Notes: a model not told the origin generated them from the letters alone. 64,000 bases of DNA from an uncultured Halanaerobiales bacterium (GCA_964568715.1 CAZMQU010000004.1:11089-75088), one strand, 5' to 3'. Positions 13,193 to 59,993 are shown, counted from the first letter of the stretch. Numbers and translations are program-made.

Positions 13193-13466
13193 GCGCGAAG
13201 CTTTTGCCGACGGTTATGAAAGCGGTTGCGGCATGGCTGTTTAAGGCTTAATGCGCTGGCTGCGGCGAATATTAACCGCTGCCTAAGAGTATAAGGCCTA
13301 TTATCTTTCAATGGATTTTATGCGACCCGGGGCAGGAATCTAGTATTTGGCAGCAATTTACGGCTGGCAAGAGAGGTATTTAAGGATTGGCTTGAATGGC
13401 AGAAAAAAGATGGATCGGAAAAAGTTTATTAGGGAAGGATTGAAGAAACCTTAAGGAGGGCTTGAG

Positions 13467-14618: not shown

Positions 14619-14648
14619 ATTTTTCAGACTTGAGTACCTATAAATGAA

Positions 14649-14695
14649 AAAAGCCTTCCTTTGAACAGAGAAAAGTTCAAGGGGGGCTTTTTGTT
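14649..14695 (+). terminator. Rho-independent terminator after the FGE lipoprotein gene
   Basis: A nested hairpin, AAAAGCC...TTTGAAC-agagaaaa-GTTCAA-GGGGGGCTTTTT, is followed by a T-run. Confidence 0.5.
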
Positions 14696-14715
14696 AAGAA
14701 GAAATATGGTTGGTT

Positions 14716-14955
14716 TCAGATGAAATTTTCGTCTTTTCCTTTGATCATTTTGATATAAACCATCAATTTCTTGCGGTAATTCACATTCAGTTGTTGATAT
14801 TTCCGTTTTTTGTGATTTATGGACAAAAAAAGGGCATCAGCAGCTTCCTTGGCCTTGTAACCTCGGCAATAATGATCGAAGACACTTCGCTCTGCCGGTG
14901 TCAAGTTTTTAATATTGTCAGCAAATCTTTGCAAGAGTTGCTTGGCTTGCTGCAA
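14716..14955 (-). CDS. Stand-alone LuxR/FixJ-type HTH fragment (79 aa), probably a remnant of a duplicated membrane LuxR regulator
   Basis: LTPAERSVFDHYCRGYKAKEAADALFLSIN...YRKKLMVYIKMIKGK aligns to the C-terminal HTH of the 18697..20316 protein (LSPAEENVFNLYLKGHSAKEAAEILYLSINTIKTHNKRIYRKLNVSSRKELMILIKMM). It has a 4-aa gap in the recognition helix. No sensor domain lies upstream. Confidence 0.5.
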   Translation of the reverse strand: MQQAKQLLQRFADNIKNLTPAERSVFDHYCRGYKAKEAADALFLSINHKKRKYQQLNVNYRKKLMVYIKMIKGKDENFI

Positions 14956-15382
14956 GAAGTCTATAAGCGGGTAACAGACGAAGCAAAGGGAGATGGGTAG
15001 TATATATTTGGTAAATAAATTTGAAGTTTATTTATGGAAAACGTTTGCTTAGGCGATGGTATCGCTTTGGCAGCCGGTTATTTTTAAAGAGATGGCCGAT
15101 TATTTTTTACAACCGGCTTATACTTAATTTAGGGGATCATTTGCCAATTCCTCTTGCAAAATCACCCCTAATTCACCCCTTTGCAGAAAAATATCCAACA
15201 AAATCACCCTAAGGATGATTACAAATAAGAAAAAAAATTGTATATTAGGTCTGAAGAAACTTATTTTGCAGAAGCTGTTTTAGGACAACCGGAATTATTG
15301 TCTGTCCAAAAGCAGAGCATTTTGTCAACCTGACACCGGGTCAAGCAATTTACCGCCTGAAATTCTGTAAGGAGGTGTAGCA

Positions 15383-16252
15383 ATGCGGCAATATTTATCG
15401 CTTTTGCTATTGATTATTTGCCTGAACATATTTTCCGGTTGTAAAGCAAACGGGGTTTCCACAGTGAATTATAATAAGATCGAGGATAGGGCCCGGGTAG
15501 AAAGAGAAATTCTCCCGAAAATGCAAGTCAGCCGGGTAGAAGGGGCCAATATTAATAAGGGTGGGGGAAGCTATGCACAAAAAATACCGACAATAGCCGG
15601 CGGTTATAATGCTTATAAAGATGCCCGGGATGCTTTTGAGCGTTATGCTTTGGATATGAGTAATTTTTGTGGGACTGTTGCCTTAAATATAAGCTTGGTA
15701 AGTGCCTTTGAAGGAGAGATTTATTTTTATCTTTTGCCTTTGGATTTCATCGGCTTGTCAATAGATAGCTTGGGGTATTATGATGAATCAATGGAAGCAA
15801 CTTGGATCAAGATGGCTTTTGCCGGTGATGGTAAGATGATTATCGGCTCCGATGGTAGCTATCTTCTAACCGGTACTTCCGGTGAGGGTAAGTCGATGAT
15901 TTTGCAAATTGAATACCGACCTGAAGAAGATGAATTACGCTTGGAAGTGCAAGAAGACGGTAGACTGGCTTTACTTTTTGAATATATAAAAAACAAAGAA
16001 GGTTATGCCGCCCAGTATTACTTTAAGGCAGCCACCGGCTATTATGAAGATGCTCCAAAAGCAATGTGTGTCTATAGGACAATTTTCAACGGCTTGAACG
16101 GTTCCTGTGCCCGCTATGACGGTGTCGAATCAAAGCCGCAATCCTTGCTTGGCTCTGCTCCTTTAGGTGACGAATTTTTTGCCGGAGCAACCCACTGGTT
16201 TACTCTCACCAATGGAAGGTTTACAGGACTGCTAAATGGTAAGGCTTTTTAG
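15383..16252 (+). CDS. Hypothetical lipoprotein
   Basis: The signal peptide and lipobox are LNIFSGCKANG. It has a good RBS (AGGAGGTG, then 8 nt, then ATG). I recognised no conserved domain. Confidence 0.6.
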   Translation: MRQYLSLLLLIICLNIFSGCKANGVSTVNYNKIEDRARVEREILPKMQVSRVEGANINKGGGSYAQKIPTIAGGYNAYKDARDAFERYALDMSNFCGTVALNISLVSAFEGEIYFYLLPLDFIGLSIDSLGYYDESMEATWIKMAFAGDGKMIIGSDGSYLLTGTSGEGKSMILQIEYRPEEDELRLEVQEDGRLALLFEYIKNKEGYAAQYYFKAATGYYEDAPKAMCVYRTIFNGLNGSCARYDGVESKPQSLLGSAPLGDEFFAGATHWFTLTNGRFTGLLNGKAF

Positions 16253-16565
16253 TTCATAAAGTCGGTTGGGGGGGACAGTGTGTTTTCAAGTAGGTTCTTG
16301 TTTTATCGGAAATATGGCCAAGGGAAGATAGAGCTGATAATTAAAATAATCTAAATTAAAATGTTTTGTTTTCGATAAGTATTTTTTAATCATCCGATTA
16401 AAAAGCCTGGCGTAAAAAAACTATCGAAGGAGGTGATGGATCGGGTAATTATATAACTTAACCGGTTTGCGATAAAAATTGTCCTAACTTTGCCGAAAGC
16501 CGCTGTTCATATGGATCCTGTTTTGTTATTAGCCTATATCGTTCAATAGGGTCAAGAACGATGCA

Positions 16566-18332
16566 ATGAAAAAACAAATCAAACAATTGAGGTGGAAAAT
16601 AATGTTGAAAAGGGCATTTCTTTTTGTTTTAATTGGCGTTCTGGTTCTTACTACTGTTTTTATCGGATGTGAAGGTAAGAAAACAGGTCAATTAAAGGGT
16701 AAAATCTACGATGAAGCAACAGAAGAATTGGTTAAAGAAAGTATCACCATTACCCTAGGAGACAAGAACTTGCTTGTAGAGGATGGGGATTATATATTTA
16801 CCGACATAACCCCCGGTGAAAAGAGCCTGAAAGTTTTGGCTCCCGGTTATGAAGAATATAGTGCGACGGTGGTCATTGAAGCCGGTAAGGTAATGACTCA
16901 CGATGCTTATTTGATAAAAGAAGAATTGCCGATCGTAAAGGGTGCGCTGCAGGGTAAAATTATTGATAAAGAGCTCGGTATTTTAGTTACCGGAGCTGTT
17001 ACCGTAAAACTTGACGGCCAAGCTTCTACCTTCACCGATGGAGAATATATTTTTACCGATTTGGAGCCTGGTGAAAAAGAATTGCAAGTCAGCATACCCG
17101 CTTACAAAGTGTATTCTGCTAGAGTCGAAATTGAATCGGGAGAGACTACTGAGCATGATGTTTTACTGGAGCAAGCATTAAGAACTATTAAAGGAAAGAT
17201 TTTTGACAAAGCAAACGGAAATCTAATTACTCAAAGAGCAGACATTACGATAGAGTATGCCGATGGTGATTATGAAAGATCATTGACCGTTTATGATGGT
17301 GAATATTGTTTCGATGATTTGCCCTATTTTAAAGCAAATGCATACTGGCACATATCTTGCGCTACGGAAGACTATAAAACCCATTATACATTGCTAATCT
17401 TTTCCGGCAGTAATACCACCATTATTGAGAAAGATTTTTACCTTGATACAATAACCTTATCGCCGCTAAACCTTAATTTGATACCTATAACGGTAATTCC
17501 AGCGGAAGGGTTTCCCAAAGGAAACGATGATCTTTCCACGGGCCAGGTACCTGAACCCGATCTGTATTACCTGGGTAAATATCAAATTACTTATGGTTTG
17601 TGGCAGACTGTCTACAACTGGGCTACTGAGGAAGAACGCGGCGAAAATCGATACTATTTTCAAAATCCTGGGACAGGAACAGGTATTTTTCATCCGGTTA
17701 CGGGTATCAGTTGGCGGGATGCCATTGTCTGGTGCAATGCCTTAAGCGATTACTATCGGGAATCAAACGAGGATTACGAAAGCTATCCGGTTTATTTAGA
17801 TTCGGATAACTATGAACCTATTCGGGATTCCAGGGACAGTAACGGCGAAATCTGCGATAATGCCATATGCGCTTGGGAGGATGTTTACGGGTTTCGTCTA
17901 CCCACTTCAGAAGAATTTGAGGCAGCAGCCCGCTACATTGGGCCCGATAAGCCCACCGAAGGTGCAATTGGGGAAGAAGCTATCTTTAAAAACGATATTT
18001 ATTGGACGCCTCATAACTTTGCCAGCGGTGCTTTGGATGAAATAGATAACGAAGAGGCAACTACTGCCGTAGCCTGGTATTCACAAAACAGTGGTGATCA
18101 AATTCATCCTGTTGGCGATTTGTTGCCCAATGCTTTGGGGTTATACGACATGAGCGGCAATGTTTGGGAATATTGTTTTGCTTCAGGTGATGTTGGCAGA
18201 TGTGTTTTACGGGGTGGCCCTTTCAACGGGATGCGGGTAGATGTCGGTTATTACATTAGTGCTCCTTTTGATGATGGCTCCAATAATTTTGGCTTCCGTT
18301 TGGCCAGAAGCAGATATGAATTTAACTATTAA
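16566..18332 (+). CDS. Large lipoprotein with three tandem beta-sandwich repeats and a C-terminal FGE-sulfatase domain
   Basis: Lipobox VFIGCEG. There are three internal repeats of about 85 aa (GKIYDEATEEL...GDYIFTDITPGEKSLKVLAPGYEEYSATVVIEAGKVMTHDAYL; GKIIDKELGIL...GEYIFTDLEPGEKELQVSIPAYKVYSARVEIESGETTEHDVLL; GKIFDKANGNL...). FGE motifs are HPVTGISWRDAIVWCNALSDYY, GFRLPTSEEFEAAARY and GLYDMSGNVWEYCF. Confidence 0.8.
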   Translation: MKKQIKQLRWKIMLKRAFLFVLIGVLVLTTVFIGCEGKKTGQLKGKIYDEATEELVKESITITLGDKNLLVEDGDYIFTDITPGEKSLKVLAPGYEEYSATVVIEAGKVMTHDAYLIKEELPIVKGALQGKIIDKELGILVTGAVTVKLDGQASTFTDGEYIFTDLEPGEKELQVSIPAYKVYSARVEIESGETTEHDVLLEQALRTIKGKIFDKANGNLITQRADITIEYADGDYERSLTVYDGEYCFDDLPYFKANAYWHISCATEDYKTHYTLLIFSGSNTTIIEKDFYLDTITLSPLNLNLIPITVIPAEGFPKGNDDLSTGQVPEPDLYYLGKYQITYGLWQTVYNWATEEERGENRYYFQNPGTGTGIFHPVTGISWRDAIVWCNALSDYYRESNEDYESYPVYLDSDNYEPIRDSRDSNGEICDNAICAWEDVYGFRLPTSEEFEAAARYIGPDKPTEGAIGEEAIFKNDIYWTPHNFASGALDEIDNEEATTAVAWYSQNSGDQIHPVGDLLPNALGLYDMSGNVWEYCFASGDVGRCVLRGGPFNGMRVDVGYYISAPFDDGSNNFGFRLARSRYEFNY

Positions 18333-22750: not shown

Positions 22751-23229
22751 CGTTCTTATTTCCTCCTTTGGGCTTTGATTATTCACCGTTACAGCCTTTG
22801 AAACTTCTTTTTTCTTTATTGCGGGTCTTTGACAGCCCGGCCCAAACTCTTCGGCCAATATAATTCACCCCTTTTAAAAATATTTTTACACCGGAATAGA
22901 TTGGTTTTCTTTATAATGTTTACTTATTTATAATTTCCATCAATAGATATAAAATCCTCTTTATTTGTTTTTTCAATGACTGAATTGATATTATACAATC
23001 GATAACATAAAATGTTTGTTCAATTACCGATAAAATAGCCGGTAACCGTGGCTGCTAGGATGGAAAATAAATGGTTTAATAAGAGAAGCAGGAATGTGTA
23101 ACATACCCTTGTAAAAGATTGCCACTATGGGTAAGATATAGTTGAGAAGTTATACGATATAAAAATTATATAAAATATGAATATTAAGGGGGAATTACCA
23201 TAAAGAGGACTAAGAAGCAATTAGCTGTA

Positions 23230-24852
23230 GTGATCGTGGCAATAATAATGACCCTTGTATTCCCTTTGGGTGTTTTCGGTAAAAAAGCTAACCCTAGCGT
23301 TGCACTTGTATTGGGGGGAGGTTCAGCCCGTGGTTTGAGCCATATTGGTTTTATCAAAGCCATGGAAGAACAGGGGATTCCAATTGATCTATTGGTTGGG
23401 ACAAGCATGGGCAGTATTATTGCCGGTATTTATGCTGCCGGTTACTCGACTGACAATATGATACATATCTTCTCAACTTTGGATATGGCCTCCCTTCTCG
23501 ATATTCCAATGCCCCCCCTGGGCGGTGTTCTTGATACTGCCGGTTTACAATTGTATCTGGACAAGATGCTGCGGGGAATGTGCTTTGATGAGTTGTCCAT
23601 CCCTTTTTATTCAGTAGTGGTTAACCTGGGTACCGGTAAAGAGGAGGCATTGAATGAGGGAAAGGTTAGTACTGCCATTCAAGCCAGTATGTCTATTCCC
23701 GGTGTTTTTATGCCGGTTGAAATCGATGGACAACACTATGTAGACGGTGGTTTGAAAAATCAGGTTGCTGCTAATGTGGCCGCTGACAAGGGTGCCGATG
23801 TCATAGTTGCCGTATGTTTGGAGCACGATTATCAAGAGCCGAATTTTAAAGATATAATAAATAACTTACGCATGTCCTTGACCGCCATGATGGATGGCTA
23901 TGTTGATATACATACCGCCATGGCCGATGTGCTAGTCTTACCTGAAGTGGATTTTGGTTCATCTATGGACTATTACCGGGTGCCGTATTTTGTTACTCAA
24001 GGTTACAAGGCCGGCAATGAGTATGCTACGGAGATAAAAGAGGCCATCTTGGCCCAAAATCCTTCCTATAAATTCATTCCTTATAAGCAACCCGGTTGCA
24101 GTACCGGTGAATTGAATCAATTGTTGCGAGAAGCGGAGCTTGCTGCAGCCACACTGCCCAAACGTTTCACTTTGAAAACTCTTTTGACTTACGATAGAGA
24201 TTACAATTTTACAAAAATGGGCTTGAAGTTTACCCATGGCCCCCTAAATTTGTTTGGTGTCGGTTATCGTTATGGGTTCGATTCGCAGGATGGTGGGCAT
24301 GAATTGTTTTTGGATTGGGGGACCGAAAAGACTGGAGCGGCCGATCTTTATCTCCGATTAAACCCTAATAGAAGTAAGCCTTCTTTTGGGTTTTCTCTCC
24401 GAAGCCCTGAATATAATAACCTTGCTTTAGAAGCAGCGTATGTATCTCAAGGGGAAAAGGCTTGGCGATTATCCGTTACCAATAATTCACTTTTGAATCT
24501 CCCTCGGGTAGTTGCAGGGTTATCATTGCAAGTTCACAGGCTTCGTACCGATGAAACCAGTGTACCGTATGCAGAAAAAATTATTTTGAATGCTATGCCA
24601 AGGTTAAGAATATATCCTTGGGAAGACAAGCGTTTTGCCTTGGGAGCTGCCTTAATAAGACCGTACCTTTTAACGGGTGCTTCTATAGGCACAAAGATCA
24701 GCAAATTTGAACCTATTGTATCCATCAAAACCGGCATGGGCTTGGATTTCCAATTGATGGGCCTTTATCCGGGTACGTTTTTTGCCGGTATTCAATTTGA
24801 CGGTACCGGTAAGTTAAAAGGGAAGTTCGAATTAAAGATGGGTGATCTGTAG
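23230..24852 (+). CDS. Patatin-like phospholipase (PNPLA) with a C-terminal beta-strand-rich domain of about 250 aa
   Basis: Patatin motifs are present: the oxyanion motif LVLGGGSARG, the GxSxG motif GTSMGS, and DGG (YVDGGL). The C-terminal half shows alternating hydrophobic residues and is G/Y-rich, which looks beta-barrel-like. The start is uncertain. A signal-like sequence, KRTKKQLAVVIVAIIMTLVFPLGVFG, is in frame just upstream of the annotated GTG. Confidence 0.8.
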   Translation: MIVAIIMTLVFPLGVFGKKANPSVALVLGGGSARGLSHIGFIKAMEEQGIPIDLLVGTSMGSIIAGIYAAGYSTDNMIHIFSTLDMASLLDIPMPPLGGVLDTAGLQLYLDKMLRGMCFDELSIPFYSVVVNLGTGKEEALNEGKVSTAIQASMSIPGVFMPVEIDGQHYVDGGLKNQVAANVAADKGADVIVAVCLEHDYQEPNFKDIINNLRMSLTAMMDGYVDIHTAMADVLVLPEVDFGSSMDYYRVPYFVTQGYKAGNEYATEIKEAILAQNPSYKFIPYKQPGCSTGELNQLLREAELAAATLPKRFTLKTLLTYDRDYNFTKMGLKFTHGPLNLFGVGYRYGFDSQDGGHELFLDWGTEKTGAADLYLRLNPNRSKPSFGFSLRSPEYNNLALEAAYVSQGEKAWRLSVTNNSLLNLPRVVAGLSLQVHRLRTDETSVPYAEKIILNAMPRLRIYPWEDKRFALGAALIRPYLLTGASIGTKISKFEPIVSIKTGMGLDFQLMGLYPGTFFAGIQFDGTGKLKGKFELKMGDL

Positions 24853-25622
24853 ACAATTGTTGGGATAAGAGGCGAATAAAATAGGATAACCTCCTACTTT
24901 GTTAATGTTTGTTCATTTTTTCCATTAAGAAATATAAGAATCAATAGTAAAATTAAAGTGGATATGCATTTTATTGATAAAGTATTACTTTTGTAAAATA
25001 CCTGCCATCGGCTTGTATTACTAAAGAGCTGGGTATGCTGTTGGGCAATTTCAAAGCTAAACGGTTGTGAAAAAGAAACGATTAAAAGTTCTGCTCTCCG
25101 TGTCAGGTTTGGCCTTGCGGACTTGCAGAACTTTTTTAATGCTCTGTTGGCGGTGCAAAAAAATTTAAGAAGCTCCTTATCGTTATGGTCTTTATGACGA
25201 TTGGGTTCGTCGAGAATTGAAAACCAGGGGCACAACACCTAAGCCTATATAACGCCGTCCAGGGATTAGATGAAAACTGCATTTTCGTTTGTCTTCGCCA
25301 TGCTTATCATCGTTAAGCAACCCGGTTTATGGGAACAAAAAATATCGGTATCCTTTATTCGTTGGGATATGTTTGACGAATCAATTATGGCGAAGATTTA
25401 AAATAAAGTTTCCTTTAAAGGAAAGGGGGAGCTTTTGTATAAAAATTAATAGTACAAAGTTTATAGTTATAGCGATGTAATTTGCCGATAATTAAGTAGA
25501 TATTAGGTTTTAATTGAAGTTTGCCGGGTTATGGTTTTTGATAAAGGTTTGGAAAGGTTAAAATGAGCAGTGATTTCAGCAAATATTAAAATTTTCTGTA
25601 TGAAGCGGAAAGGAGAATATTT

Positions 25623-26066
25623 TTGATCGGCTTATTTTTGATTTTGGCCTTAATTGGTGGGTCGGCTGCTACTGTACAGACCGTAATCAATGCCCAGTTA
25701 CGCAATTGGGTGGGGCACCCTGTCTTCGCTTCTTTTGTTTCTTTCTTTGTTGGCGCCTTAGTACTTCTTTTATTCATTTTAATGGGTCGATTGCCCTTGC
25801 CGCCGCTGGCCGATCTGCAAAAGGCTCCTTGGTGGGTCTGGATTGGTGGAGCTTTGGGTGCTTTTTATATATGGTCGACGGTTATAGCTGCCCCGCGACT
25901 GGGGGCTACGGTTTTAATGGGGGCGGTGGTGGCGGGGCAAATGTTAATTTCTTTGGTATTGGATCACTACGGTCTTTTGGGATTGGAAAGGCAACCATTT
26001 AATGTTTGGCGGGCTTTAGGGATCTTATGTCTTTTTTTGGGGGTTGCATTGATAAGAGGGAAATAA
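25623..26066 (+). CDS. YdcZ/DUF606-like small DMT-superfamily membrane protein
   Basis: 147 aa with 4-5 TM segments. It is rich in G and A, like YdcZ. It has a TTG start. Confidence 0.5.
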   Translation: MIGLFLILALIGGSAATVQTVINAQLRNWVGHPVFASFVSFFVGALVLLLFILMGRLPLPPLADLQKAPWWVWIGGALGAFYIWSTVIAAPRLGATVLMGAVVAGQMLISLVLDHYGLLGLERQPFNVWRALGILCLFLGVALIRGK

Positions 26067-26395
26067 ATTGAGGGTAATAAAATAAATAATGTCAACAAGA
26101 CCAACCCAAAAAGTACCTTTCGATCAATTTTTTTCATGAAACCTCCTTTAACATTTTAATTCAAAATCATTTTTCCTCTTTGTCTCCGGAAAGTGGAATA
26201 CTGTCTGCCTTATGTATCAAAAAAATGTGCTTAATCAAAATTCATCGGTTGTAAAGGTGACAAAATTAACTGAAGACATTCTTAGATAGCTTGACTAATA
26301 TTCAAGCGTGATCGCCCTATTTAATAGAATATACTTACTAAGGAGGTTTTAATAAAAGGACCTTTCTAAATTGTTGGAACATTAGTCTGAATTCA

Positions 26396-26947
26396 GTGTA
26401 TCAGGTCAGCAAAAAGGGGGTGAGAAAAATCAAAGTAATTGTCAAAGAATATGATCCCGATTGGGTCGGTATGTTTCAACAGGAGGCTGCAATGCTAAGT
26501 AAAATATTTGGCAAGGAATTGATAACTATTTATCACATCGGGAGTACCGCAGTGCCCAACCTTAAAGCAAAGCCGATAATAGATATGATGCCGGTGGTTG
26601 AGGATATTGACAAGGTGGACCAATACAATGACGCAATGATTGCTTTAGGATATGAACCGATGGGTGAGTTTGGCATTCCCGGTAGACGTTATTTTCGAAA
26701 AGGGGGCAGCAAGCGAACCCACCAAGTCCATATTTTTCAAGTTGGCAGCAAAGATATTACTCGGCACCTGGCTTTTCGGGACTATTTGCTTGTTCACCCG
26801 GAAAAGGCAAAGGAATACGGTGAATTAAAAGCAGTATTGGCTCAACAGCATCCCGATGATATAGAAGCTTATTCCGATGGCAAAGATGATTTTGTAAAAA
26901 ATACTGAAAAAGCAGCCTTGGCTTGGTACAAAAAGGTATGCCCTTAA
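26396..26947 (+). CDS. GrpB-family protein (UPF0157, nucleotidyltransferase-like fold)
   Basis: IKVIVKEYDPDWVGMFQQEAAMLSKIFGKELITIYHIGSTAVPNLKAKPIIDMMPVVEDIDKVDQYNDAMIALGYEPMGEFGIPGRRYF matches the conserved GrpB core. Confidence 0.8.
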   Translation: MYQVSKKGVRKIKVIVKEYDPDWVGMFQQEAAMLSKIFGKELITIYHIGSTAVPNLKAKPIIDMMPVVEDIDKVDQYNDAMIALGYEPMGEFGIPGRRYFRKGGSKRTHQVHIFQVGSKDITRHLAFRDYLLVHPEKAKEYGELKAVLAQQHPDDIEAYSDGKDDFVKNTEKAALAWYKKVCP

Positions 26948-27198
26948 CTTTTACGACCATGCCGTCAGGCAATCTGTCAGTGGTAAGGCAATCCCCAAAA
27001 ACGATCTTTAATAAGAAGAGGGGCTAGGTAATTTAAAGGTCGTATTAGGAAAGCATAATAGTAGTAACAGGTGGTGAAATTTCTCTTTGCTCAGTTTCAC
27101 CCTCGCCGGTGCTAATTGGTGTCGGTAAATTATTATGATAGAATTGAAGTCGGAAGTTTTTTCGCACCGGAAAAAGTGTATACATATTTCCTGAGGAG

Positions 27199-29865
27199 GT
27201 GTGGCAAATCAAAAAAACTCGCAAGCAAGCCAAAAGTGAAGAAGAAATAGTTCGCAATCTCCGTAATGCCAGTGCAAAAAGTATTGACGATGTACTTTGT
27301 GAATTGGCAACTTCGCCCCAAGGTCTTTCACCTATAGAAATAGGTGAAAGATTGGCTCAATACGGTACCAATGAGCTCACTTATGAAAAGCGAAATCCCT
27401 GGTATATTTACCTTTTAAAGTCCTTTTTGGATCCCTTTATACTGATCTTGCTCGGCATAGTTTTTATTTCTTATTTTACGGATGTAGCCTTCGTTGCCAG
27501 CTCGGAGCGAAGCTGGGTAACAATTGTTATTATTTCCATAATGATTTTGATCAGTGTAATTTTGCGTTTCAGCCAGGAATATAAGTCGCAGATGACGGCG
27601 GATAACTTAAAAGATTTGGTTCCTACGACCACAGCCATCAAACGGAAGGGTTCGGAACCGTGTGAAATTGTTATGTCCAATGTGGTGCCCGGCGACATTA
27701 TTTATTTAGCGGCCGGGGATTTGATTCCTGCCGATATGAGGCTATTGACCAGTAAGGACTTGTTTATTAGCCAGTCCTCCTTGACCGGCGAATCGGAACC
27801 GGTGGAAAAATTTACGACAGCCGGCCGAAATACCTCTGACAATACTTCCCCTGAGCGGAAAAATGTTGCCGATTTGGACAATATTGCTTTGATGGGAACA
27901 ATCGTAGTCAGCGGATCAGCAACGGGGGTGGTCTTGGCTACCGGTAATGATACTTATTTTGGAAGTATTGCTGAATCTATAGCCAAAGATGTCGGTAAAA
28001 CCAGCTTCGAAGAAGGGGTTAAAAGTGTTGGGTTTTTGCTGATTAGATTTATGGTAGTTATGGTACCTATTGTTTTTTTGATTAACGGCATAACCAAAAA
28101 TGATTGGTTGGGTGCATTGCTGTTTTCCATATCAATTGCGGTCGGTTTGACGCCGGAGATGTTGCCGACCCTTGTCTCCACAAACTTGGCCAAGGGTGCT
28201 ATCTCTCTTTCAAAAAAAAGAATAATAATAAAAAGGCTCAGTTCCATACAAAACTTCGGCGCCATGGATATTTTGTGTACCGATAAAACCGGTACACTGA
28301 CTGAGGATAAGATTGTTTTGGAAAGTTATCTGGATGTCTTGGGGCAGGAAGACGACCGGGTTTTGCGGCACGGATTTTTAAACAGTTTTTATCAAACGGG
28401 CTTGAAGAACCTTTTGGATTTGGCTGTAATAGACCGGGCTCAAAAAAAAGAATTGGATAAAGTGACAAAACTGTATGAAAAGGTGGATGAGATTCCCTTT
28501 GATTTTACGAGAAGAAGGATGTCCGTGGTGGTGGAAAGCGAAGGAGGCAAACGTCAACTGATAACAAAAGGAGCAGTGGAGGAGATGATTTCTATCTGCT
28601 CTTTTGTAGAAGTGGGCGAAGAGGTGCTTCCTTTGACCGAAGAATTAACCGAGCGGGCCTTTAAGATGGTAAACAAACTCAACAGTCAGGGGATGCGCGT
28701 CTTGGCCGTTGCTCAAAAGAACGATGTTCCCGACGTAGATGTTTTTGGTGTAAAGGACGAGAGCGACATGGTTCTTATCGGTTATATGGGTTTTTTGGAC
28801 CCCCCTAAAATTACCGCTAAACCGGCTATCGAGGCTTTTTTTGAGCACGGGGTCGATGTTAAGATCTTAACCGGGGATAATGACATTGTGACTAAAAAGA
28901 TTGCCGGCGATTTGGGCATTCCAACGGAAAATATTCTTTTAGGTGCTGATATCGAGACTATCAGTGATGATGAATTATATCAATTGGCCCAAAATACCTC
29001 CATTTTGGCGAAACTATCGCCGATACAAAAAGAAAGAGTAATAACGGTTTTGCAGAAAAACGATCATGTTGTAGGCTTTTTGGGAGACGGCATTAATGAT
29101 GCCCAAGGCTTGAAACAAGCGGATGTCGGGATCTCCGTGGATACCGCCGTGGATATTGCCAAGGAATCGGCGGATATCATTATGTTGGAAAAAGATTTGA
29201 ATGTTTTAGAGGAGGGGGTAATTGAGGGAAGAAGAGTCTTTGGCAATATTATTAAATATATTAAAATAACGGCCAGTTCAAACTTCGGCAATGTTTTCAG
29301 TGTCTTGGCCGCCAGTGCCTTTTTACCTTTCTTGCCTATGCTCCCCTTGCAGCTTTTGGTCCAAAACCTTCTTTACAGCATCTCCCAAATCTCCATCCCT
29401 TGGGATAATATGGACCCGGAGTATCTTCGTAAACCCCAACAATGGGATGCCGACGAAATTGGCAAATTCATGATCTATATCGGTCCGATAAGTTCTGTAT
29501 TTGATATAGTGACTTTTTTAGTAATGTGGTTTATCTTTAAAGCCGACTCAGTGGCAATGGCTCCCTTATTCCAATCGGGCTGGTTTGTCGTAGGCCTTCT
29601 TACTCAAACCTTGATTGTTCATATTGTCAGAACACGAAAAATACCCTTTATCCAAAGTCGTGCTTCTTTGCCGGTCCTCTTGATGACGGGCTTGATTATG
29701 GTATTGGGGCTAATAGTTCCCTTCAGCGGATTTGGTCGCTTTATAGGCCTAGTTTCTTTGCCCGGTAACTATTTTATCTGGCTTGTGGGTATATTGTTGG
29801 CTTATTCCTTGTCTACGGAGCTGGTCAAAAGAATTTACGTCAAAAGATTCGACAATTGGCTCTAG
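27199..29865 (+). CDS. mgtA: Magnesium-importing P-type ATPase (MgtA/MgtB family)
   Basis: 888 aa. The phosphorylation motif is DKTGTLT. TGDN and GDGINDAQGL motifs are present. It has about 10 TM segments. It is preceded by a 250-nt leader. Confidence 0.9.
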   Translation: MWQIKKTRKQAKSEEEIVRNLRNASAKSIDDVLCELATSPQGLSPIEIGERLAQYGTNELTYEKRNPWYIYLLKSFLDPFILILLGIVFISYFTDVAFVASSERSWVTIVIISIMILISVILRFSQEYKSQMTADNLKDLVPTTTAIKRKGSEPCEIVMSNVVPGDIIYLAAGDLIPADMRLLTSKDLFISQSSLTGESEPVEKFTTAGRNTSDNTSPERKNVADLDNIALMGTIVVSGSATGVVLATGNDTYFGSIAESIAKDVGKTSFEEGVKSVGFLLIRFMVVMVPIVFLINGITKNDWLGALLFSISIAVGLTPEMLPTLVSTNLAKGAISLSKKRIIIKRLSSIQNFGAMDILCTDKTGTLTEDKIVLESYLDVLGQEDDRVLRHGFLNSFYQTGLKNLLDLAVIDRAQKKELDKVTKLYEKVDEIPFDFTRRRMSVVVESEGGKRQLITKGAVEEMISICSFVEVGEEVLPLTEELTERAFKMVNKLNSQGMRVLAVAQKNDVPDVDVFGVKDESDMVLIGYMGFLDPPKITAKPAIEAFFEHGVDVKILTGDNDIVTKKIAGDLGIPTENILLGADIETISDDELYQLAQNTSILAKLSPIQKERVITVLQKNDHVVGFLGDGINDAQGLKQADVGISVDTAVDIAKESADIIMLEKDLNVLEEGVIEGRRVFGNIIKYIKITASSNFGNVFSVLAASAFLPFLPMLPLQLLVQNLLYSISQISIPWDNMDPEYLRKPQQWDADEIGKFMIYIGPISSVFDIVTFLVMWFIFKADSVAMAPLFQSGWFVVGLLTQTLIVHIVRTRKIPFIQSRASLPVLLMTGLIMVLGLIVPFSGFGRFIGLVSLPGNYFIWLVGILLAYSLSTELVKRIYVKRFDNWL

Positions 29866-29933
29866 AAAAAGTTGTTTACGGAGAAGTTCGGCAGGTACAG
29901 ACCTGTCGTCATCAATACATGGGGTGATAGATA

Positions 29934-31376
29934 ATGGGTGGTCAAAATTGTTCTTTGAAAAATAAATACAGGGTAAAAGGAATAGTAACCAAGGGTACCA
30001 AGAAAAATGATTTTTGGGGTACAAGGGCTAAAGGTTGGGGTTTTGAACACATTGATTTATGGCAATTGGAAAACATTAAAGTAGAGGTGTATCGTGCTGA
30101 AGATGTAAGTTTCCGGGGCGAGGAGCTGCAATTTAAGGAGGGAGCTGAAGCGGTTGCTTCCCTTCTTGTATCTGATCCCAATCCGGCCGGGAAAAATTAT
30201 TATGCTCCTTTTGAATTTCTTTTGAAGCGGGGCGATTATTATCTGATAATCCGGAAAGCCCCCGGCCTTTACGCAACGGTTTATAAGTCTTTCACCGTGG
30301 CGGATGGGGATACCGACGTGGGTCCCTTGCCCATGCGCAAAGAAAAGATCGAAGGGGAATTTGTCCGCAGCTTTTTCAGTTGCCGGCCCGATGGCTCAGT
30401 CGATTCGGCCAATAACAGGATTACCGTTAAGATACTTAATGCCAAAGTTGCTCCCGGGGGAGCCAATCGGAACACGGTATTGGTGGACGGTATGCCGCCG
30501 GGATTATTTGTGGAAGATTATATTGCCGATACAGAAGAAAATTCCATAAGTTTGGTTTTTGGGGGCCAAAGGCAGGATGAACTTATTGCCGGTCTTGTTT
30601 TGACAGTTACCATTATGGAAAAGGCTGTAATTAATGAGTTCTTTCCCGGTTGTTATTCCTATGATACTTCCGATAGGTTAAACGGTATACGATTGGTTCA
30701 AGAGGTATCTCCCCAAGATGTTGCCCTAGGTAAGGCATCGTATGCTCAAGCCTTTACATTTTTGCCCGGCGAAGCATATCCGGTGGATGACGCCAAGGAA
30801 TCTATCCGAAAGATTACCGGGGTTGATCCCAAGATTTTGGAGATTCTCTACCGGGAAAGTTTACAGGAGGATGGCAGTTGCAAGTATTGTTTGTTTTTGG
30901 TCAATACCAACGTTACGAGTACTTACATGCAAAGGCATTCCAAAGGAATAACTCCGCGAGGTTGGGAGTGGACGGGGCTTACCTGGGATGACATACCCGG
31001 GTCGGGAGGTAAAAACATAATCGTGCGGATAGGCCGGAGCGATTACGGCCATGGGCACGGCTCTACCAATGTGGAGCTCCACGAACTGGCCCACAATATC
31101 GATGCTTCCGTTTTCAAGGGAATTTCCAAGACAAAAGAATGGAATGACCTGCGGGAGGAAGAATCAACGCAACTTTTCCCCATGGACATTAACTATATGA
31201 CAGCCTATACCGAGGAATTTTTTGCTGAATCTTTTATGCTATACTATTTAAACGAAGAAAGCAAAAGATGGCTTCGCAAGAAAGGCCCCAAGACCTACGA
31301 AGCCATTGAAGTGGGCTTGCAAGAAAAATTAAAAAAATTCTACGGTAAGGATCCCAAGTATTCACATCTTTTTTAA
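29934..31376 (+). CDS. Protein with a C-terminal anthrax-lethal-factor-like (ATLF / Pro-Pro-endopeptidase-like, M34-type) zinc metallopeptidase domain
   Basis: The HExxH motif is VELHELAHNID. A downstream Glu is present (YTEEFFAESF). The preceding segment GWEWTGLTWDDIPGSGGKNIIVRIGRSDYGHGHGSTN is typical of ATLF-fold peptidases. There is no obvious N-terminal signal peptide. Confidence 0.55.
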   Translation: MGGQNCSLKNKYRVKGIVTKGTKKNDFWGTRAKGWGFEHIDLWQLENIKVEVYRAEDVSFRGEELQFKEGAEAVASLLVSDPNPAGKNYYAPFEFLLKRGDYYLIIRKAPGLYATVYKSFTVADGDTDVGPLPMRKEKIEGEFVRSFFSCRPDGSVDSANNRITVKILNAKVAPGGANRNTVLVDGMPPGLFVEDYIADTEENSISLVFGGQRQDELIAGLVLTVTIMEKAVINEFFPGCYSYDTSDRLNGIRLVQEVSPQDVALGKASYAQAFTFLPGEAYPVDDAKESIRKITGVDPKILEILYRESLQEDGSCKYCLFLVNTNVTSTYMQRHSKGITPRGWEWTGLTWDDIPGSGGKNIIVRIGRSDYGHGHGSTNVELHELAHNIDASVFKGISKTKEWNDLREEESTQLFPMDINYMTAYTEEFFAESFMLYYLNEESKRWLRKKGPKTYEAIEVGLQEKLKKFYGKDPKYSHLF

Positions 31377-31720
31377 TATATTATTTAAAAATCCCGATAT
31401 GAAGTGTATTTTATTCGACAGATGGGGGGAGTTTGTAAACTACTTCCCCTTTTTTAAAGGATAAAACAGCCGGAGAATTTGTAGCCATTGCCTGTTTTCT
31501 TTGATTATTAAAAGGAGGCGATTGCTCTAATCAAGATGATAAGATAAAAAAAGATACTTAACATTAAACCAAATTACCATAAGTAGTGTAGCAAAAATTT
31601 TAAGCCTGATAAATTAACTTAAAAAATTACTGTAATAGAAAAAAACGCCATTAAAAAAAGGAAACAGTAATTGTTTGGAGTATTATGTAAAAAGCAAAGC
31701 GAAAATGGAGGGAGTTAGCA

Positions 31721-33046
31721 ATGAAACGGCTCGTTTTAATCAATCCCGTAAATCCTTGTAAAACCGGTTTGTCAATCAATAACAGTTCCCGATTTCCACC
31801 CTTGGGTTTGGGCATTGTTGCTGCTTTAACACCGGCTAATTGGGCCATTAAATTGATCGATGAGAACATTGCACCATTTGAATATATGGAGGCCGATTTA
31901 GTTGGAATTACAGCCTTTACTTCGTCAGCAAAACGGGCCTACGATATCGCATCGGTTTATCGCAAAAATGGCATACCTGTGGTTATGGGAGGTATTCATG
32001 CCTCAATGCTTCCTGAAGAAGCTCTTAGCTATGTTGATGCAGTAGTTGTTGGTGAGGCGGAGAGTGTTTGGCAAAAGGTTTTAAACGATTTTGAGGCTGG
32101 GAAATTATCCCCTGTTTATAAGGGTGACCTTATTGATTTAGACAAAATGCCTTCGGCCAGGCATGATTTATTTAGTTCCAAGTATTTGTTCAGTGTCGTG
32201 CAGACAGCCAGAGGTTGTCCGATGGATTGCGATTTTTGCTCGGTTACGCCCTTTAATGGTCGCCGATACAGGCAAAGACCGATTAGTGATGTGCTCGACG
32301 AGTTGGAGATCATTCCTAAAAAGAAGATTTTTTTTGTCGATGATAACATAATTGGCTATGGTAAACAAGCCCGCGAAAGGGCAGTGGAGCTATTCAAAGG
32401 TATGATTCAGCGTAAACTTAAAAAAGAATGGTTTTGCCAGGCCTCGATTAATTTTGCTGAAGATGAGGAAGTATTAAGATATGCTGCACAAAGCGGTTGC
32501 AGGATGGTATTTCTTGGTCTGGAAGCTGAAAGCAATGAAGCATTAGGTGGAATTAACAAGAAGCTGAATATTGAAATAGGGGTCGACCGATACAAAGATT
32601 TAATTGCCAGGATCAACCGATTTAAAATTGCTGTCTTGGGGGCGTTTATATATGGAATGGACACCGATACACTCAGCTCCCTGGAGGCAAGAACCAAATA
32701 CATGATTGAAGGACCGATTGATGTCATGCAATCAACCGTTTTAACCCCATTGCCCGGCACGAAGCTGTATAAAAGACTTTGTGAGGATAAAAGACTCTTG
32801 TATCACAATTATCCCCAGGATTGGAATCATTACGATATGACTGAAGTGGTTTTTCAACCGAAATTGATGAAAGTCGATGAACTTGCCAATGCAATGGATT
32901 TGGCGAGAAAGCAAAAATATAGGATGTTGGTGCTAGGACGTAAGTTTTTTAAAACCCTTGCGGCTACGAAAAGTTTAGCGACGGCAATTTGGGCCCTTAG
33001 CTCAAATATCAACTATGCCAAAGTTGCGAAGGATATTTCAAAATAA
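31721..33046 (+). CDS. B12-binding-domain radical SAM protein (class B rSAM)
   Basis: It has an N-terminal cobalamin-binding-like Rossmann segment. The radical SAM CxxxCxxC motif is RGCPMDCDFCSV. It is 441 aa. Confidence 0.8.
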   Translation: MKRLVLINPVNPCKTGLSINNSSRFPPLGLGIVAALTPANWAIKLIDENIAPFEYMEADLVGITAFTSSAKRAYDIASVYRKNGIPVVMGGIHASMLPEEALSYVDAVVVGEAESVWQKVLNDFEAGKLSPVYKGDLIDLDKMPSARHDLFSSKYLFSVVQTARGCPMDCDFCSVTPFNGRRYRQRPISDVLDELEIIPKKKIFFVDDNIIGYGKQARERAVELFKGMIQRKLKKEWFCQASINFAEDEEVLRYAAQSGCRMVFLGLEAESNEALGGINKKLNIEIGVDRYKDLIARINRFKIAVLGAFIYGMDTDTLSSLEARTKYMIEGPIDVMQSTVLTPLPGTKLYKRLCEDKRLLYHNYPQDWNHYDMTEVVFQPKLMKVDELANAMDLARKQKYRMLVLGRKFFKTLAATKSLATAIWALSSNINYAKVAKDISK

Positions 33047-33175
33047 TTTTTATTCCTTGTCCCGGGCAACTCTTGCAAAGGCCATTATGAAAAGTTATTG
33101 AACGGACGATAAATATATCAAATGGGTCCATTAATTTCAGGGCTAAGTACTAAAGTGCCATTTATTTTATAACTT

Positions 33176-34873
33176 ATGGGGAGTTGTCCATTGGTTCTTG
33201 GAAGGGTGAGTGCTGTGAAAAAGAAAAAAAATACAACTATCCTGATCATTTTGTCTTTACTTATGGTCGTTTTTAATTTGTTGGGTGTTTCAGTAATTTA
33301 TGCTTCCCCACCGTCTGTTGCTTTGATTTTAGGCGGTGGTTCAGCCCGGGGTTTAAGCCACATAGGGATGATCGAAGCCTTTGAAGAAAATGGTATACCC
33401 ATCGATATGTTGTTGGGGACAAGTAGCGGGAGTATTATAGGGGGGCTATATGGGGCCGGATTTTCCATTGAAAACATGATTGATATTTGCACTAATTTGG
33501 ATATGCACTCCTTAATTGAGATTCCCTTGCCGCCCCGTGGTGGTTTTATTGATTCCGGGCGACTTAGATATTACTTGGACATTATATTGGAGGGGATAAC
33601 CCTCGAACAACTATCAATTCCTTTTTATCCGGGTGTTGTTGATTTAGGTACGGGTCGGGATGTTGCCTTGGACCAAGGTAAGCTTAGTGCCGGTATCCTG
33701 GCCAGTATTGCCATTCCCGGAGTTTTTCCGCCTGTGGAAGTTGGCGGCAATTATTATGTCGATGGTGGTTTAAAAAATCTGGTCCCGGCAAATCTGGCCT
33801 CTGCTTTGGGAGCAGATGTCATTATCGGCGTATCTATGGGGCAAGAAAACCGAGTTTATAAGGATCCCGAACACAAAAGTATTTATAACAATTTGCGAAA
33901 AACCATCAATGCGGTTATGGTGGGGTATTCTGCGGTTAACACTGCTGAAGCTGATGTTCTTTTTGTGCCTGACATTGACTTGACACACATATACGACTAT
34001 GAAAATGTTCTTTATTTTGTTGAACGCGGCTATCAAGCAGGCATTGACCACATGGACGAAATTAGGGCGGCTATCCTGGCCAGAGATCCCGATTTTGTGT
34101 TTAAGCCCTACAAGCAAAAGGGAATCAGCAGTGTTGATTTGGCCAACCGGATTGAAAAGGCGAAGCGTGAAACAGAAAAATTTCATGGCCCACTTACGGT
34201 TAAGCCCCTTTTGGGTTTTGATGATAATTACTACTTTTCAAAAATTGGTGCAAAGGTTACGGCCGGTCCTTTAAAACGCTTTGGAGTTGGTTACCGCTAC
34301 GGTTTTAACGACGATGAAGGAGGCCATGAATTATTTGTCGATTGGTCCCATCCCAAAATTGCCAATCTCGATACTTATTTTAGAAAAAGTCCTAAAAGAG
34401 AGAAGATCACTTGGGGCCTGGACCTCAATATTCCTTTATACAAGAAATTTGCCTTGGATGCTGCTTTTGTTACGCAGGGTTCTAATGCTTGGCATGTGGC
34501 AGTTAGAAATGAAGCTTTCCTAAATTTTCCCCATTTTAACGGCGGTTTGGCCTTAACTCTTAAGGGCCTGCGTTCAGAAGGGGGTAATCTCTCCAACGAA
34601 GGGAAGCTTTCCTTGAGTTTAAAACCACAGATAAAGATTTTGCCTTGGGGCGAAAAGTGGCTTCCCCTAGGGCCTTTCCCCCTTAAACCCTACTTCTTGG
34701 CTGCTGCCGAAATGGGAACTCCTTTGAATGATTTCTCATTGCAGACGACTTTTAAAGTCGGCTTGGGAACCGACTTCAGAATCTTGGGCTTATTCCCGGG
34801 TGAACTGTCGTTGAACGGTTATATAACAAATGAAGGTCAATTTTTTGGCCAGATTGGATTAAGAAGAAAATAA
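33176..34873 (+). CDS. Patatin-like phospholipase, a paralog of 23230..24852, with a C-terminal beta-rich domain
   Basis: Motifs ALILGGGSARG, GTSSGS and YVDGGLKN. The N-terminal signal-like segment is KKKKNTTILIILSLLMVVFNLLGVSVIYAS. The C-terminus aligns with its paralog (KVGLGTDFRILGLFPG against KTGMGLDFQLMGLYPG). The start is uncertain, with a GTG at about 33212 as an alternative. Confidence 0.8.
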   Translation: MGSCPLVLGRVSAVKKKKNTTILIILSLLMVVFNLLGVSVIYASPPSVALILGGGSARGLSHIGMIEAFEENGIPIDMLLGTSSGSIIGGLYGAGFSIENMIDICTNLDMHSLIEIPLPPRGGFIDSGRLRYYLDIILEGITLEQLSIPFYPGVVDLGTGRDVALDQGKLSAGILASIAIPGVFPPVEVGGNYYVDGGLKNLVPANLASALGADVIIGVSMGQENRVYKDPEHKSIYNNLRKTINAVMVGYSAVNTAEADVLFVPDIDLTHIYDYENVLYFVERGYQAGIDHMDEIRAAILARDPDFVFKPYKQKGISSVDLANRIEKAKRETEKFHGPLTVKPLLGFDDNYYFSKIGAKVTAGPLKRFGVGYRYGFNDDEGGHELFVDWSHPKIANLDTYFRKSPKREKITWGLDLNIPLYKKFALDAAFVTQGSNAWHVAVRNEAFLNFPHFNGGLALTLKGLRSEGGNLSNEGKLSLSLKPQIKILPWGEKWLPLGPFPLKPYFLAAAEMGTPLNDFSLQTTFKVGLGTDFRILGLFPGELSLNGYITNEGQFFGQIGLRRK

Positions 34874-34905: not shown

Positions 34906-34928
34906 GGGACCTTGAGGTCCCTTTTTTT
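34906..34928 (+). terminator. Rho-independent terminator (GGGACC-TTGA-GGTCCC followed by T7)
   Basis: A perfect 6-bp GC-rich stem with a 4-nt loop and TTTTTTT, 33 nt after the patatin stop. Confidence 0.7.
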
Positions 34929-34956
34929 ATGGTTGAAAAGATTGGGGTCCCTGTTA

Positions 34957-42833: not shown

Positions 42834-43123
42834 AATCAAAAGCCGGAGCGCGGGTAAAAAGATCTGTAAATTCTTTTGTTAACCCAAGGCTGCCAAAAAA
42901 CAGGAATTTACTTCGATAAAACTTACCGGATTTCCCGAATTTGCCCTAGAAAAGCTTTACTTTTAAATCTCTTTGCAGTATCATAAATATTGGAGTAAAA
43001 AATCTGATATTTTTTGCCTAACGGTCCAAAATTATCTGCTTAAATGGGGTGGTTGGAACCGTTGTTAAGTTCTTGTTGAACATAACGGTTGTTATAAAAG
43101 TAATATATGGAGGTGTATTCGTA

Positions 43124-43630
43124 ATGGTCGTAAATGGAAAAGTAACTTGCAATACTACAGCGACAGACGTACTCGAACAGGTTGCAACAATTGCAGCCAG
43201 ATGGAGAGACAGGCCTGATATGATTATTCCTGTTCTCCACGAGGTACAGACAATTGCCGGTAATGGCTTACCAAAGGACGTAGTCGATGTAGTATCCCGT
43301 GAAATGAGGGTTCCCCTGTCGGATATATACGGCGTGGAAACCTTTTATTCTTTCTTTTCGACGCAAAAACGGGGAAAAACAGTGATTAGACTATGCAAAA
43401 GTGCCCCTTGCCATGTAAAGGGCAGTAAAAAGGTCTTGGAAGCCTTTGAGAAAGTTTTAGGAATCAAGGCCGGCGAGACTACTGAAGACGGAGATTTTAC
43501 TCTCGAAACCTGCGAATGCATTGGTGCTTGTGATGTTTCTCCGGCAGCACTTATCGACGGCGTTGTTTATGGTGACTTAACTCCTGAAAAAGTAGAAAAA
43601 CTAATAACCACACTTAGGAAAAAGGAGTGA
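43124..43630 (+). CDS. NADH-dehydrogenase 24-kDa-subunit-like [2Fe-2S] protein (NuoE/HoxE/FdsG family)
   Basis: A thioredoxin-like 2Fe-2S motif spans CKSAPCHVKG...CIGACDVSPA. The start was set at the ATG at 43124, which has GGAGGTG 8 nt upstream. Confidence 0.85.
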   Translation: MVVNGKVTCNTTATDVLEQVATIAARWRDRPDMIIPVLHEVQTIAGNGLPKDVVDVVSREMRVPLSDIYGVETFYSFFSTQKRGKTVIRLCKSAPCHVKGSKKVLEAFEKVLGIKAGETTEDGDFTLETCECIGACDVSPAALIDGVVYGDLTPEKVEKLITTLRKKE

Positions 43631-43634
43631 AAAC

Positions 43635-59198: not shown

Positions 59199-59993
59199 AT
59201 GATTAGATTTAATGGAAAAAAGACAGAAAAAGGGAAGACAGTAAACCTATTTTGTTTGATATTCATTCTGTTTCTGGGCTGCGGATTGCAGGGAGCGGCC
59301 AGTTGCCAGGAAATGGAAGTCGATTTGGAATCGGCAATCAAGCTTTATTTGACCGGTCAGAGAATAATTTACAGTCAAGAAGACACTTTGGAGGAGGGCA
59401 GGAATAAGCTTTTGGCAGCCAAAGAAGTTTTTTTGGATCTTGCTGAAAGTGTGGACCGCTCTTATTGGTTGGCCCGGGTGGAATATCAGCTGGGTGAACT
59501 TGAAGAAGCTTGTGGTGACGCACGGTCTGCGGCAACTGCTTTTACTTGGTGCGGTCAATGGGCTGAGAAAGCGATCAAGTCCGATAAAAAACATAGTGAT
59601 GCCCATCGCGTCCTGGCCGACTCTTATATGCGGTTGATGTCGTACAACGGTACCTTTTATTTGGTAACGAAAGGCCCCCAGGCCTTGAGTTTGCTCAAAA
59701 AGGCAGTGAGTTTGGATCAGAATAATTATAAGGCCTACATTTCCATGGGAATGTATTACTTAGGCGCTCCGGCAATCGGTGGCGGCAGCAACAAAAAAGC
59801 TCTTGAAGTACTCAATATAGCATTGGACACCGCCGATGAATTAGACATGTTTTTATGTAATGCTTGGCTGGGCCATGCTTACAAAAGGTTAAATGATAAA
59901 GATCGTGCTATTGAACACTATTCAAAAGCTCTGGCAATTTATCCTGATAGTCAATGGGCGAGAGATTTTATCGGGGCAACGACAGATATATAA
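59199..59993 (+). CDS. TPR-repeat lipoprotein
   Basis: Lipobox LFLGCGLQG. The TPR-like helical repeats include AWLGHAYKRLNDKDRAIEHYSKALAIYPD. Confidence 0.7.
   Translation: MIRFNGKKTEKGKTVNLFCLIFILFLGCGLQGAASCQEMEVDLESAIKLYLTGQRIIYSQEDTLEEGRNKLLAAKEVFLDLAESVDRSYWLARVEYQLGELEEACGDARSAATAFTWCGQWAEKAIKSDKKHSDAHRVLADSYMRLMSYNGTFYLVTKGPQALSLLKKAVSLDQNNYKAYISMGMYYLGAPAIGGGSNKKALEVLNIALDTADELDMFLCNAWLGHAYKRLNDKDRAIEHYSKALAIYPDSQWARDFIGATTDI

Follow-up and report, generated by a model that had tools for sequence, protein, structure and literature searches.

The question raised by this locus is where a phospholipase would act, and what would hold it there, when its catalytic domain is followed by a beta-rich C-terminal region without a recognized family. 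Two genes of this kind, encoding the proteins here called PatA and PatB, lie in a 64,000-nucleotide stretch of DNA from an uncultured bacterium (CAZMQU010000004.1:11089-75088; the window, from whose first letter all positions are counted). Sequence comparisons and structure prediction lead us to propose that both are Sec-exported phospholipases A anchored in the outer membrane by a beta-barrel, with the lipase domain probably facing the periplasm. We slightly favor this reading as a whole; one component of it, that PatA and PatB are patatin lipases anchored by an outer-membrane barrel, we regard as likely.

Two paralogous genes with an intact patatin catalytic domain

The original prediction, of two paralogous patatin open reading frames (ORFs) about 8 kb apart, was exact in its coordinates. 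PatA and PatB are separated by 8,323 bp on the plus strand and align from end to end (46% identity and 66% positives over 540 columns, E 1e-173), which identifies them as true paralogues and not chance matches. Their database copies, one identical to PatA (P0001) and one corresponding to PatB (P0065), are both found on a single 216-kb NCBI contig.

Pfam recognized a Patatin domain (PF01734) at residues 26-184 of PatA (E 8.6e-34, 117.9 bits) and at residues 50-208 of PatB (E 5.9e-29, 102.1 bits), the cut-off being 27.7 bits. The catalytic core is complete, as originally proposed, and consists of GGGSARG (residues 29-35), GTSMG with the nucleophile S59 and DGG with D172 in PatA, and of GGGSARG, GTSSG and DGG in PatB; residues G29-G30-G31/G35, S59 and D172-G173-G174 are invariant in a family alignment of 62 sequences (A1). 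The oxyanion motif had, however, been given as GGGxRG, whereas two residues separate GGG from RG in the actual motif (LGGGSARG), the columns of which match SGGAARG of PlpD. The passenger of PlpD was also the best solved relative of the PatA patatin domain by sequence (5fqu, E 1.3e-43), and a Foldseek search with the full PatA model matched the N-terminal half to the same passenger (5fya, E 1.3e-20, TM 0.84, 35% identity). The best NCBIfam match of the catalytic domain was PRK10279, of the RssA/YchK type (E 3e-33; 115 bits, against an equivalog cut-off of 272), and the database matches ranking next after proteins of the PatA/PatB architecture were patatin homologues of about 300 amino acids. 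PatA and PatB are, on their sequences, predicted to be exported patatin-like phospholipases with lipid acyl-hydrolase activity.

A predicted 14-stranded barrel without a Pfam family

The C-terminal 225 to 250 residues share 38% identity between PatA and PatB. Their conservation, alternating hydrophobicity and richness in glycine (10-12%) had all been noted in the original prediction and were confirmed, but the abundance of tyrosine (3.5-4.8%) had been overstated; leucine accounts for 14% and phenylalanine for 6.5-8.7% of the residues. The full-length AlphaFold2 (AF2) model of PatA, built from alignment A1 with a mean predicted local distance difference test (pLDDT) score of 89 and a predicted template modelling (pTM) score of 0.86, comprises an alpha/beta patatin domain (residues 24-276), an ordered linker (277-291), a helix (292-307) and fourteen beta-strands (314-537). 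A model of the C-terminal domain alone (A2, residues 285-540) contained the identical fourteen strands at a pLDDT of 87.5. Hydrophobicity alternates in a dyad pattern in every predicted strand, making each amphipathic, and the strands are joined by short connections of 3-7 residues in the predicted periplasmic turns and 4-12 residues in the outer loops. The even number of strands, their amphipathic and antiparallel character, the short periplasmic turns and the signal peptide are all features of outer-membrane barrels, and the C-terminal domain is predicted to be a transmembrane beta-barrel. The models thus returned a barrel in place of the soluble beta-sandwich or ExoU-like localization domain that had been set out beforehand as the finding contrary to the original prediction.

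Channels and lipid transporters of 14 strands gave the best structural matches of the barrel (OmpG, CymA, PorV, FadL and TodX), PorV and FadL ranking after the first of these together with PgaA and the BrkA and Hbp autotransporter beta-domains; with the full PatA model as Foldseek query, the C-terminal half gave weak barrel matches. Sequence searches of the C-terminal domain against the PDB returned nothing significant, either with the single sequence or with a 32-sequence profile. Likewise, Pfam gave no match to the last ~250 residues of PatA and PatB and no barrel family among the 32 aligned members, one of which reached OMP_b-brl at E 0.022. This compact barrel of about 225 residues with minimal loops, for which there is no Pfam entry or curated family, would be worth curating.

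Export signals and C-terminal ends

Nearly all homologues carry a typical Sec signal peptide just ahead of the patatin domain. Of the signal-like segments originally proposed for both proteins, that of PatB is clear (Table 1), but that of PatA is weak as called from GTG 23230, with a hydrophobic core but without a basic n-region, and AF2 assigned low pLDDT values to PatA residues 1-20. The PatA frame is open further upstream, from a stop codon before 23188, and includes an ATA codon preceded by a strong Shine-Dalgarno-like sequence (Table 1). In an 89%-identical relative (L081, 2943-2959) the Shine-Dalgarno sequence is kept and the position of the ATA is occupied by ATC. The Lys/Arg-rich peptide encoded upstream is likewise conserved, reading IKRTKKQLAV in the window and IKETKKRFTI in L081, and would provide the basic n-region. 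These sequences suggest near-cognate AUN initiation, by which PatA would acquire a canonical signal peptide, M-KRTKKQ-LAVVIVAIIMTLVFPLGVFG. At the opposite end, most homologues finish in ...[WF]x[FL]G[IL]K[SG][LI][KR]F or a near variant that ends in F or Y; a terminal phenylalanine is the usual outer-membrane beta-signal of substrates of the beta-barrel assembly machinery (BAM).

Distribution of the family and envelope of the host

A word-indexed search retrieved about 100 full-length relatives of 520-600 amino acids, each with patatin as its sole Pfam domain. The named ones are labelled Limnochordia or 'Firmicutes/Bacillota bacterium' metagenome-assembled genomes (MAGs), and a second search, seeded by a divergent member, added further proteins labelled Limnochordales. 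The two-domain form was present at only about 11 loci among 185,579 GTDB species representatives, all of them Bacillota MAGs; among these representatives, 'Peptococcaceae bacterium 1109', which encodes two patatin-barrel paralogues, has been reclassified by GTDB as a member of the Limnochordia, family DTU010 (PMC8225771). A barrel-only profile, searched exhaustively, yielded 23 matches among 1.84 billion cluster representatives. Each full-length match tested combined patatin and barrel, the others being fragments or repetitive low-complexity proteins, and since the barrel occurred solely with patatin in these full-length matches it is private to this architecture. In the available sequences the family is confined to Limnochordia MAGs. 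As a taxonomic marker it cleanly indicates this class in metagenomes from digesters and compost. In a neighbor-joining tree PatA and PatB fall in separate subclades, each with orthologues in other MAGs, which points to an old duplication.

Three lineages of Firmicutes are diderm, the Limnochordia among them, and transmission electron microscopy has revealed outer membranes in the cultured Geochorda and Carboxydochorda (PMC11456536); in the account given in the same article, outer-membrane gene markers were present in all 46 UBA genomes of Taib et al. 2020. The host is considered diderm on the strength of its assignment to this lineage, neither bamA nor lpx genes having been found in the 64-kb window. 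The original prediction had also allowed for a novel lytic or anchoring domain in a monoderm host, an option that does not apply to a diderm lineage.

Near the end of the window, a cluster on the plus strand (60006-63820) encodes an ABC ATPase, an FtsX-type permease, a secreted LolA_like protein (PF17131, E 5.7e-20) and a secreted protein of 331 residues (62825-63820) that has no Pfam family, ends in ...TLRLKGHF and is a candidate outer-membrane barrel. A gene for a TPR lipoprotein-like protein (59199-59993) lies just upstream. The cluster lends weak support to a diderm host and is worthy of note because the Lol system has been reported absent from Terrabacteria (PMC10665443).

Orientation of the lipase and weighing of the alternatives

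In the mechanism that we propose, PatA and PatB would be exported by Sec and inserted in the outer membrane of a diderm Firmicute of the Limnochordia. [quoted passage not shown] There the lipase would hydrolyze glycerophospholipids and so contribute to outer-membrane lipid turnover or homeostasis, as proposed for PlpD. Veillonella parvula, a diderm Firmicute studied in detail, is devoid of PldA, PagP and MlaA (PMC10665443), so that a further phospholipase of the outer membrane would have a place.

If PatA and PatB are indeed anchored by an outer-membrane barrel, the lipase may well be periplasmic rather than surface-exposed. This orientation is favored by the precedent of PlpD and by four observations, none of them decisive. 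The pTM of 0.86 for two domains implies a fixed geometry between them. The helix at residues 292-307, which directly precedes the barrel, is modelled with a pLDDT of 91-96 in the presence of the patatin domain but of 68-78 once that domain is removed, and bears a conserved hydrophobic Leu/Ala stripe (L295, I/L299, A302, A306 and L309). In the models such a stripe would fit packing on the lipase better than a polar, charged barrel lumen, and it is unlikely that this face lies in the lumen; together, the pLDDT behavior and the stripe argue weakly against a helix in the pore. Outside the strands, conservation is highest in the linker and in two of the periplasmic turns, T1 (GPLxW) and T6 (FGL-YP), the outer loops being the least conserved (0.54 vs 0.42; one-sided Mann-Whitney p 0.026). 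Finally, genes suggestive of lipid transport adjoin the patatin-barrel gene in relatives. At five of 11 related loci (L002, L003, L005, L009 and L010) a cluster encoding a TetR protein, an MMPL-LolA_like transporter and an outer-membrane-protein-like product lies about 0.1-1 kb downstream on the opposite strand (7731-12744 in L003, for example). The transporter, of about 1,020 amino acids, has an MMPL/RND domain that continues into a LolA_like domain at its C-terminal end; the secreted protein, of 420-440 amino acids, ends in ...VTYRF and has a weak, sub-threshold match to DUF1302 (E 0.003). By sequence the cluster resembles an envelope lipid exporter with its own outer-membrane component, a resemblance that is suggestive. 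BLASTP detected no similarity between the DUF1302-like proteins of the relatives and the candidate outer-membrane protein at 62825-63820 in the window.

Several points weigh against the proposal of a barrel-anchored periplasmic lipase. The barrel itself is supported by AF2 and by sequence patterns, and whether it closes, and on which side of it the lipase lies, were read from model summaries and not from coordinates. The signal peptide of PatA is weak unless a non-canonical start codon is used. The terminal aromatic residue is absent from the ends of PatA (24826-24852, ...ELKMGDL) and of PatB (34847-34873, ...QIGLRRK), which is atypical for BAM substrates; the tails GDL and RRK look like three residues added past a Met or a Leu, and the close relative P0002 ends in GDV. 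The difference in conservation between turns and loops is modest, and variable outer loops are common to all outer-membrane proteins. The window itself has no such lipid-transporter neighborhood, and at the related loci the genes converge and are not co-operonic. The taxon of the window was deduced from homologues and not from marker genes.

A different arrangement, in the manner of type Va autotransporters, would have the helix thread the barrel lumen and the patatin domain displayed on the surface or released, where it would digest external lipids as nutrients in lipid-rich digesters or attack the membranes of competitors. The original description of the proteins as secreted is doubtful, as even the passenger of PlpD, the closest functional relative, was found on re-examination to stay in the periplasm (PMC11116518). 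The barrel, moreover, has 14 strands and not the 12 of the Autotransporter-family barrels of type Va proteins such as EstA, and Pfam Autotransporter gave no match at E<=1 in PatA, PatB or the 32 aligned members. The hydrophobic stripe of the helix and its loss of model confidence without the patatin domain also speak weakly against a place in the lumen, and the linker, strongly conserved and rigid in the model, gives no hint of a spacer prone to cleavage. We consider surface display or release unlikely, if still a serious contender. Less probable again is an enzyme combined with a channel, in which a FadL- or OmpG-like barrel would pass the fatty acids or lysolipids made by the lipase across the outer membrane. 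Its attraction lies in the structural matches of the barrel to channels and lipid transporters of the same strand number, in the very short extracellular loops, which contain no obvious plug, and in a lumen lined by polar residues, several of them invariant (E358, W412, G502 and G504, for example).

It is highly improbable that the C-terminal domain is a soluble beta-rich domain for lipid binding or localization, or that the proteins are cytoplasmic defense or effector patatins akin to CBASS CapE, ExoU or VipD. The N-terminal 60 amino acids gave weak partial matches to NCBIfam CBASS_lipase (23 bits, against a cut-off of 200) and in PADLOC (E 4e-7), and the patatin domain matched ExoU and VipD at E 1e-4 to 1e-6, but every one of these matches spans only the shared oxyanion and GxSxG region. 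A defense or effector function was rejected in view of the signal peptides, the lack of partner genes, the unrelated neighbors and the sub-threshold, partial nature of the matches. The role in virulence or defense entertained in the original prediction finds no support; the relatives are MAGs of free-living bacteria from digesters and compost.

Features of the window

The coordinates of the features assigned to PatA and PatB are listed in Table 1. The interval between the two genes encodes a YdcZ-type transporter, GrpB, an MgtA-type P-type ATPase, an ATLF metalloprotease and a B12-binding radical-SAM enzyme, whose functions are unrelated, and no conserved operon partner of the patatin-barrel genes was found in the window. 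The metalloprotease, a protein of 480 amino acids (29934-31376, plus strand), contains a zinc-dependent domain of the anthrax-toxin-lethal-factor family (ATLF, PF07737, E 2e-41) with the motif HELAH, residues ~1-270 being without a family match. The radical-SAM enzyme (31721-33046, plus strand), directly 5' of PatB, has a moderate PADLOC match to the candidate-defense model PDC-M51A (E 1.2e-10), which probably reflects generic radical-SAM similarity. In scans for promoters and terminators the counts stayed within shuffled expectation, and the hairpin after PatB alone looks convincing as a terminator.

Table 1 Features of the patatin-barrel genes PatA and PatB in the window.
Feature	Residues	Coordinates	Strand	Basis or remark
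PatA Shine-Dalgarno-like AAGGGGG (23186-23192) and, 7 nt on, in-frame ATA (23200-23202)		23186-23202	+	Possible non-canonical start
PatA ORF, stop codon included	540 aa	23230-24852	+	Patatin-barrel protein
PatA hydrophobic segment MIVAIIMTLVFPLGVFG, read as signal-peptide core	1-17	23230-23280	+	Position in homologues
PatA patatin-like phospholipase domain	24-276	23299-24057	+	Pfam, PlpD matches, motifs
PatA linker (277-291; consensus DPxFxFxPYxQxGxS), amphipathic helix (292-307) and LPxxF connector (308-313)	277-313	24058-24168	+	AF2, pLDDT 91-97
PatA predicted 14-stranded beta-barrel, followed by the 3-residue tail GDL	314-537	24169-24840	+	AF2
PatB ORF, stop codon included	565 aa	33176-34873	+	Paralogue, architecture as PatA
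PatB signal peptide: KKKK n-region, long hydrophobic core, cleavage between IYA and SPPS	1-43	33176-33304	+	Cleavage site read from the sequence
PatB patatin domain	48-303	33317-34084	+	Pfam; alignment to PatA
PatB linker and helix	304-340	34085-34195	+	Alignment to PatA
PatB predicted beta-barrel	341-564	34196-34867	+	Alignment to PatA barrel, without large gaps
Intrinsic-terminator-like hairpin GGGACCTTGAGGTCCC, then T7 run		34906-34931	+	Directly 3' of PatB; consensus match only

Elsewhere in the window, two GAF-GGDEF diguanylate cyclases (5-1180 and 4398-6542, plus strand), one with an N-terminal TPR array, suggest cyclic di-GMP signalling in the host. A run of genes for secreted proteins on the plus strand (12051-18332) combines CarboxypepD_reg/PEGA-like beta-sandwich and FGE-sulfatase (PF03781) domains at 12051, 13467 and 16566 and includes an unannotated lipoprotein-like ORF (15383-16252); the GC content is 0.48 at ~10-14 kb and ~0.41 elsewhere. 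The gene for the alpha subunit of a formate-dehydrogenase-type molybdopterin oxidoreductase (44894-47569, plus strand) is split by an in-frame TGA at 45938-45940 (...NCARV*HAPT...), which is probably a selenocysteine codon, given that both halves of the ORF are in the same frame. It is preceded by NuoE/NuoF-like genes (43049-44891) and followed by MobA-like (47542) and FdhD (48261) genes.

Comparison with known systems

Three features define the PlpD type: a patatin domain, a POTRA domain and an Omp85 barrel of 16 strands (PMC11116518). Hanson et al. 2024 reported that the patatin domain of PlpD is periplasmic, that the protein dimerizes and that its loss raises phospholipid levels, and a role in the homeostasis of the inner leaflet of the outer membrane was proposed (PMC11116518). 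PatA and PatB resemble PlpD of Pseudomonas aeruginosa and FplA of Fusobacterium in uniting a signal peptide, an N-terminal Ser-Asp patatin domain, an alpha-helical linker and a C-terminal outer-membrane barrel in a single polypeptide, and probably also in their role as a barrel-tethered phospholipase A on outer-membrane lipids (PMC11116518). The likeness to the PlpD, or type Vd, kind seen in the original prediction holds to this extent, the patatin domain being closest to that of PlpD, but does not extend to the anchor. Instead of a POTRA domain, PatA has 37 residues (277-313) that AF2 models with one helix and no beta-alpha-alpha-beta-beta unit, and the Pfam search that covered PatA, PatB and the 32 aligned members gave no match to POTRA (PF07244) or Omp85 (PF01103) at E<=1. 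The barrel is of 14 strands and about 225 residues here and of 16 strands and about 300 residues in PL-Omp85 proteins, and when the barrel profile was compared by hhalign with P0104, a bona fide PL-Omp85 protein, the probability was 0.5%, with a sensitivity limited by the single-sequence template. The lid of PlpD, 38 residues (89-126) that dock on barrel strand 1, is reduced in PatA to about 8 residues with a conserved DIPxPPxGGxxDT (PPxGG) motif. The proteins are also shorter (about 540 against about 730 amino acids) and, in contrast to the PlpD type, limited to the Limnochordia. By sequence, the patatin-barrel proteins are PlpD-like in outline and not members of the PlpD family, their anchor being unrelated to the Omp85 barrel with its POTRA domain.

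The passenger here has a patatin fold, whereas the passengers of type Va autotransporters have a GDSL fold or a beta-helix. OMPLA/PldA, PagP and LpxR are likewise outer-membrane enzymes acting on envelope lipids, with a similar proposed role in homeostasis, but they carry the active site on the barrel itself and not in a separate globular domain, and have no sequence or family relationship with PatA and PatB. The soluble or periplasmic bacterial patatins of RssA/YchK type, to which the closest NCBIfam match of the catalytic domain belongs, have no barrel domain.

If the proposal is correct, the patatin-barrel family would be an enzyme of outer-membrane glycerophospholipid turnover in a lineage where PldA, PagP and MlaA are not known. 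The making and upkeep of the outer membrane in diderm Firmicutes are actively studied for what they may tell of the origin of monoderms, and the known toolkit of these bacteria is without the proteobacterial enzymes of lipid asymmetry (PMC10665443); a patatin lipase on a private barrel offers a concrete and testable candidate for a role in outer-membrane lipids in the Limnochordia. Were the periplasmic orientation and the role in lipid homeostasis both true, the family would represent a convergent invention of this enzyme design in diderm Firmicutes. We put forward, tentatively and as somewhat less than an even prospect, that barrel-tethered periplasmic patatins arose at least twice, the Limnochordia version on a lineage-specific, non-Omp85, POTRA-less barrel of 14 strands. 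It would also bring independent comparative support to the contested view of the PlpD-type barrel as an anchor and membrane-perturbing platform and not a secretion pore, for if an unrelated, smaller and POTRA-less barrel supports the same lipase, the task of the barrel is more likely to be anchoring than translocation. In the literature library searched, no paper was found to mention patatin together with Limnochordia. A patatin lipase tethered by an outer-membrane barrel is, in itself, already known; what is new here lies in the anchor, in the lack of both POTRA domain and lid, in the compactness of the protein and in its restriction to one lineage.

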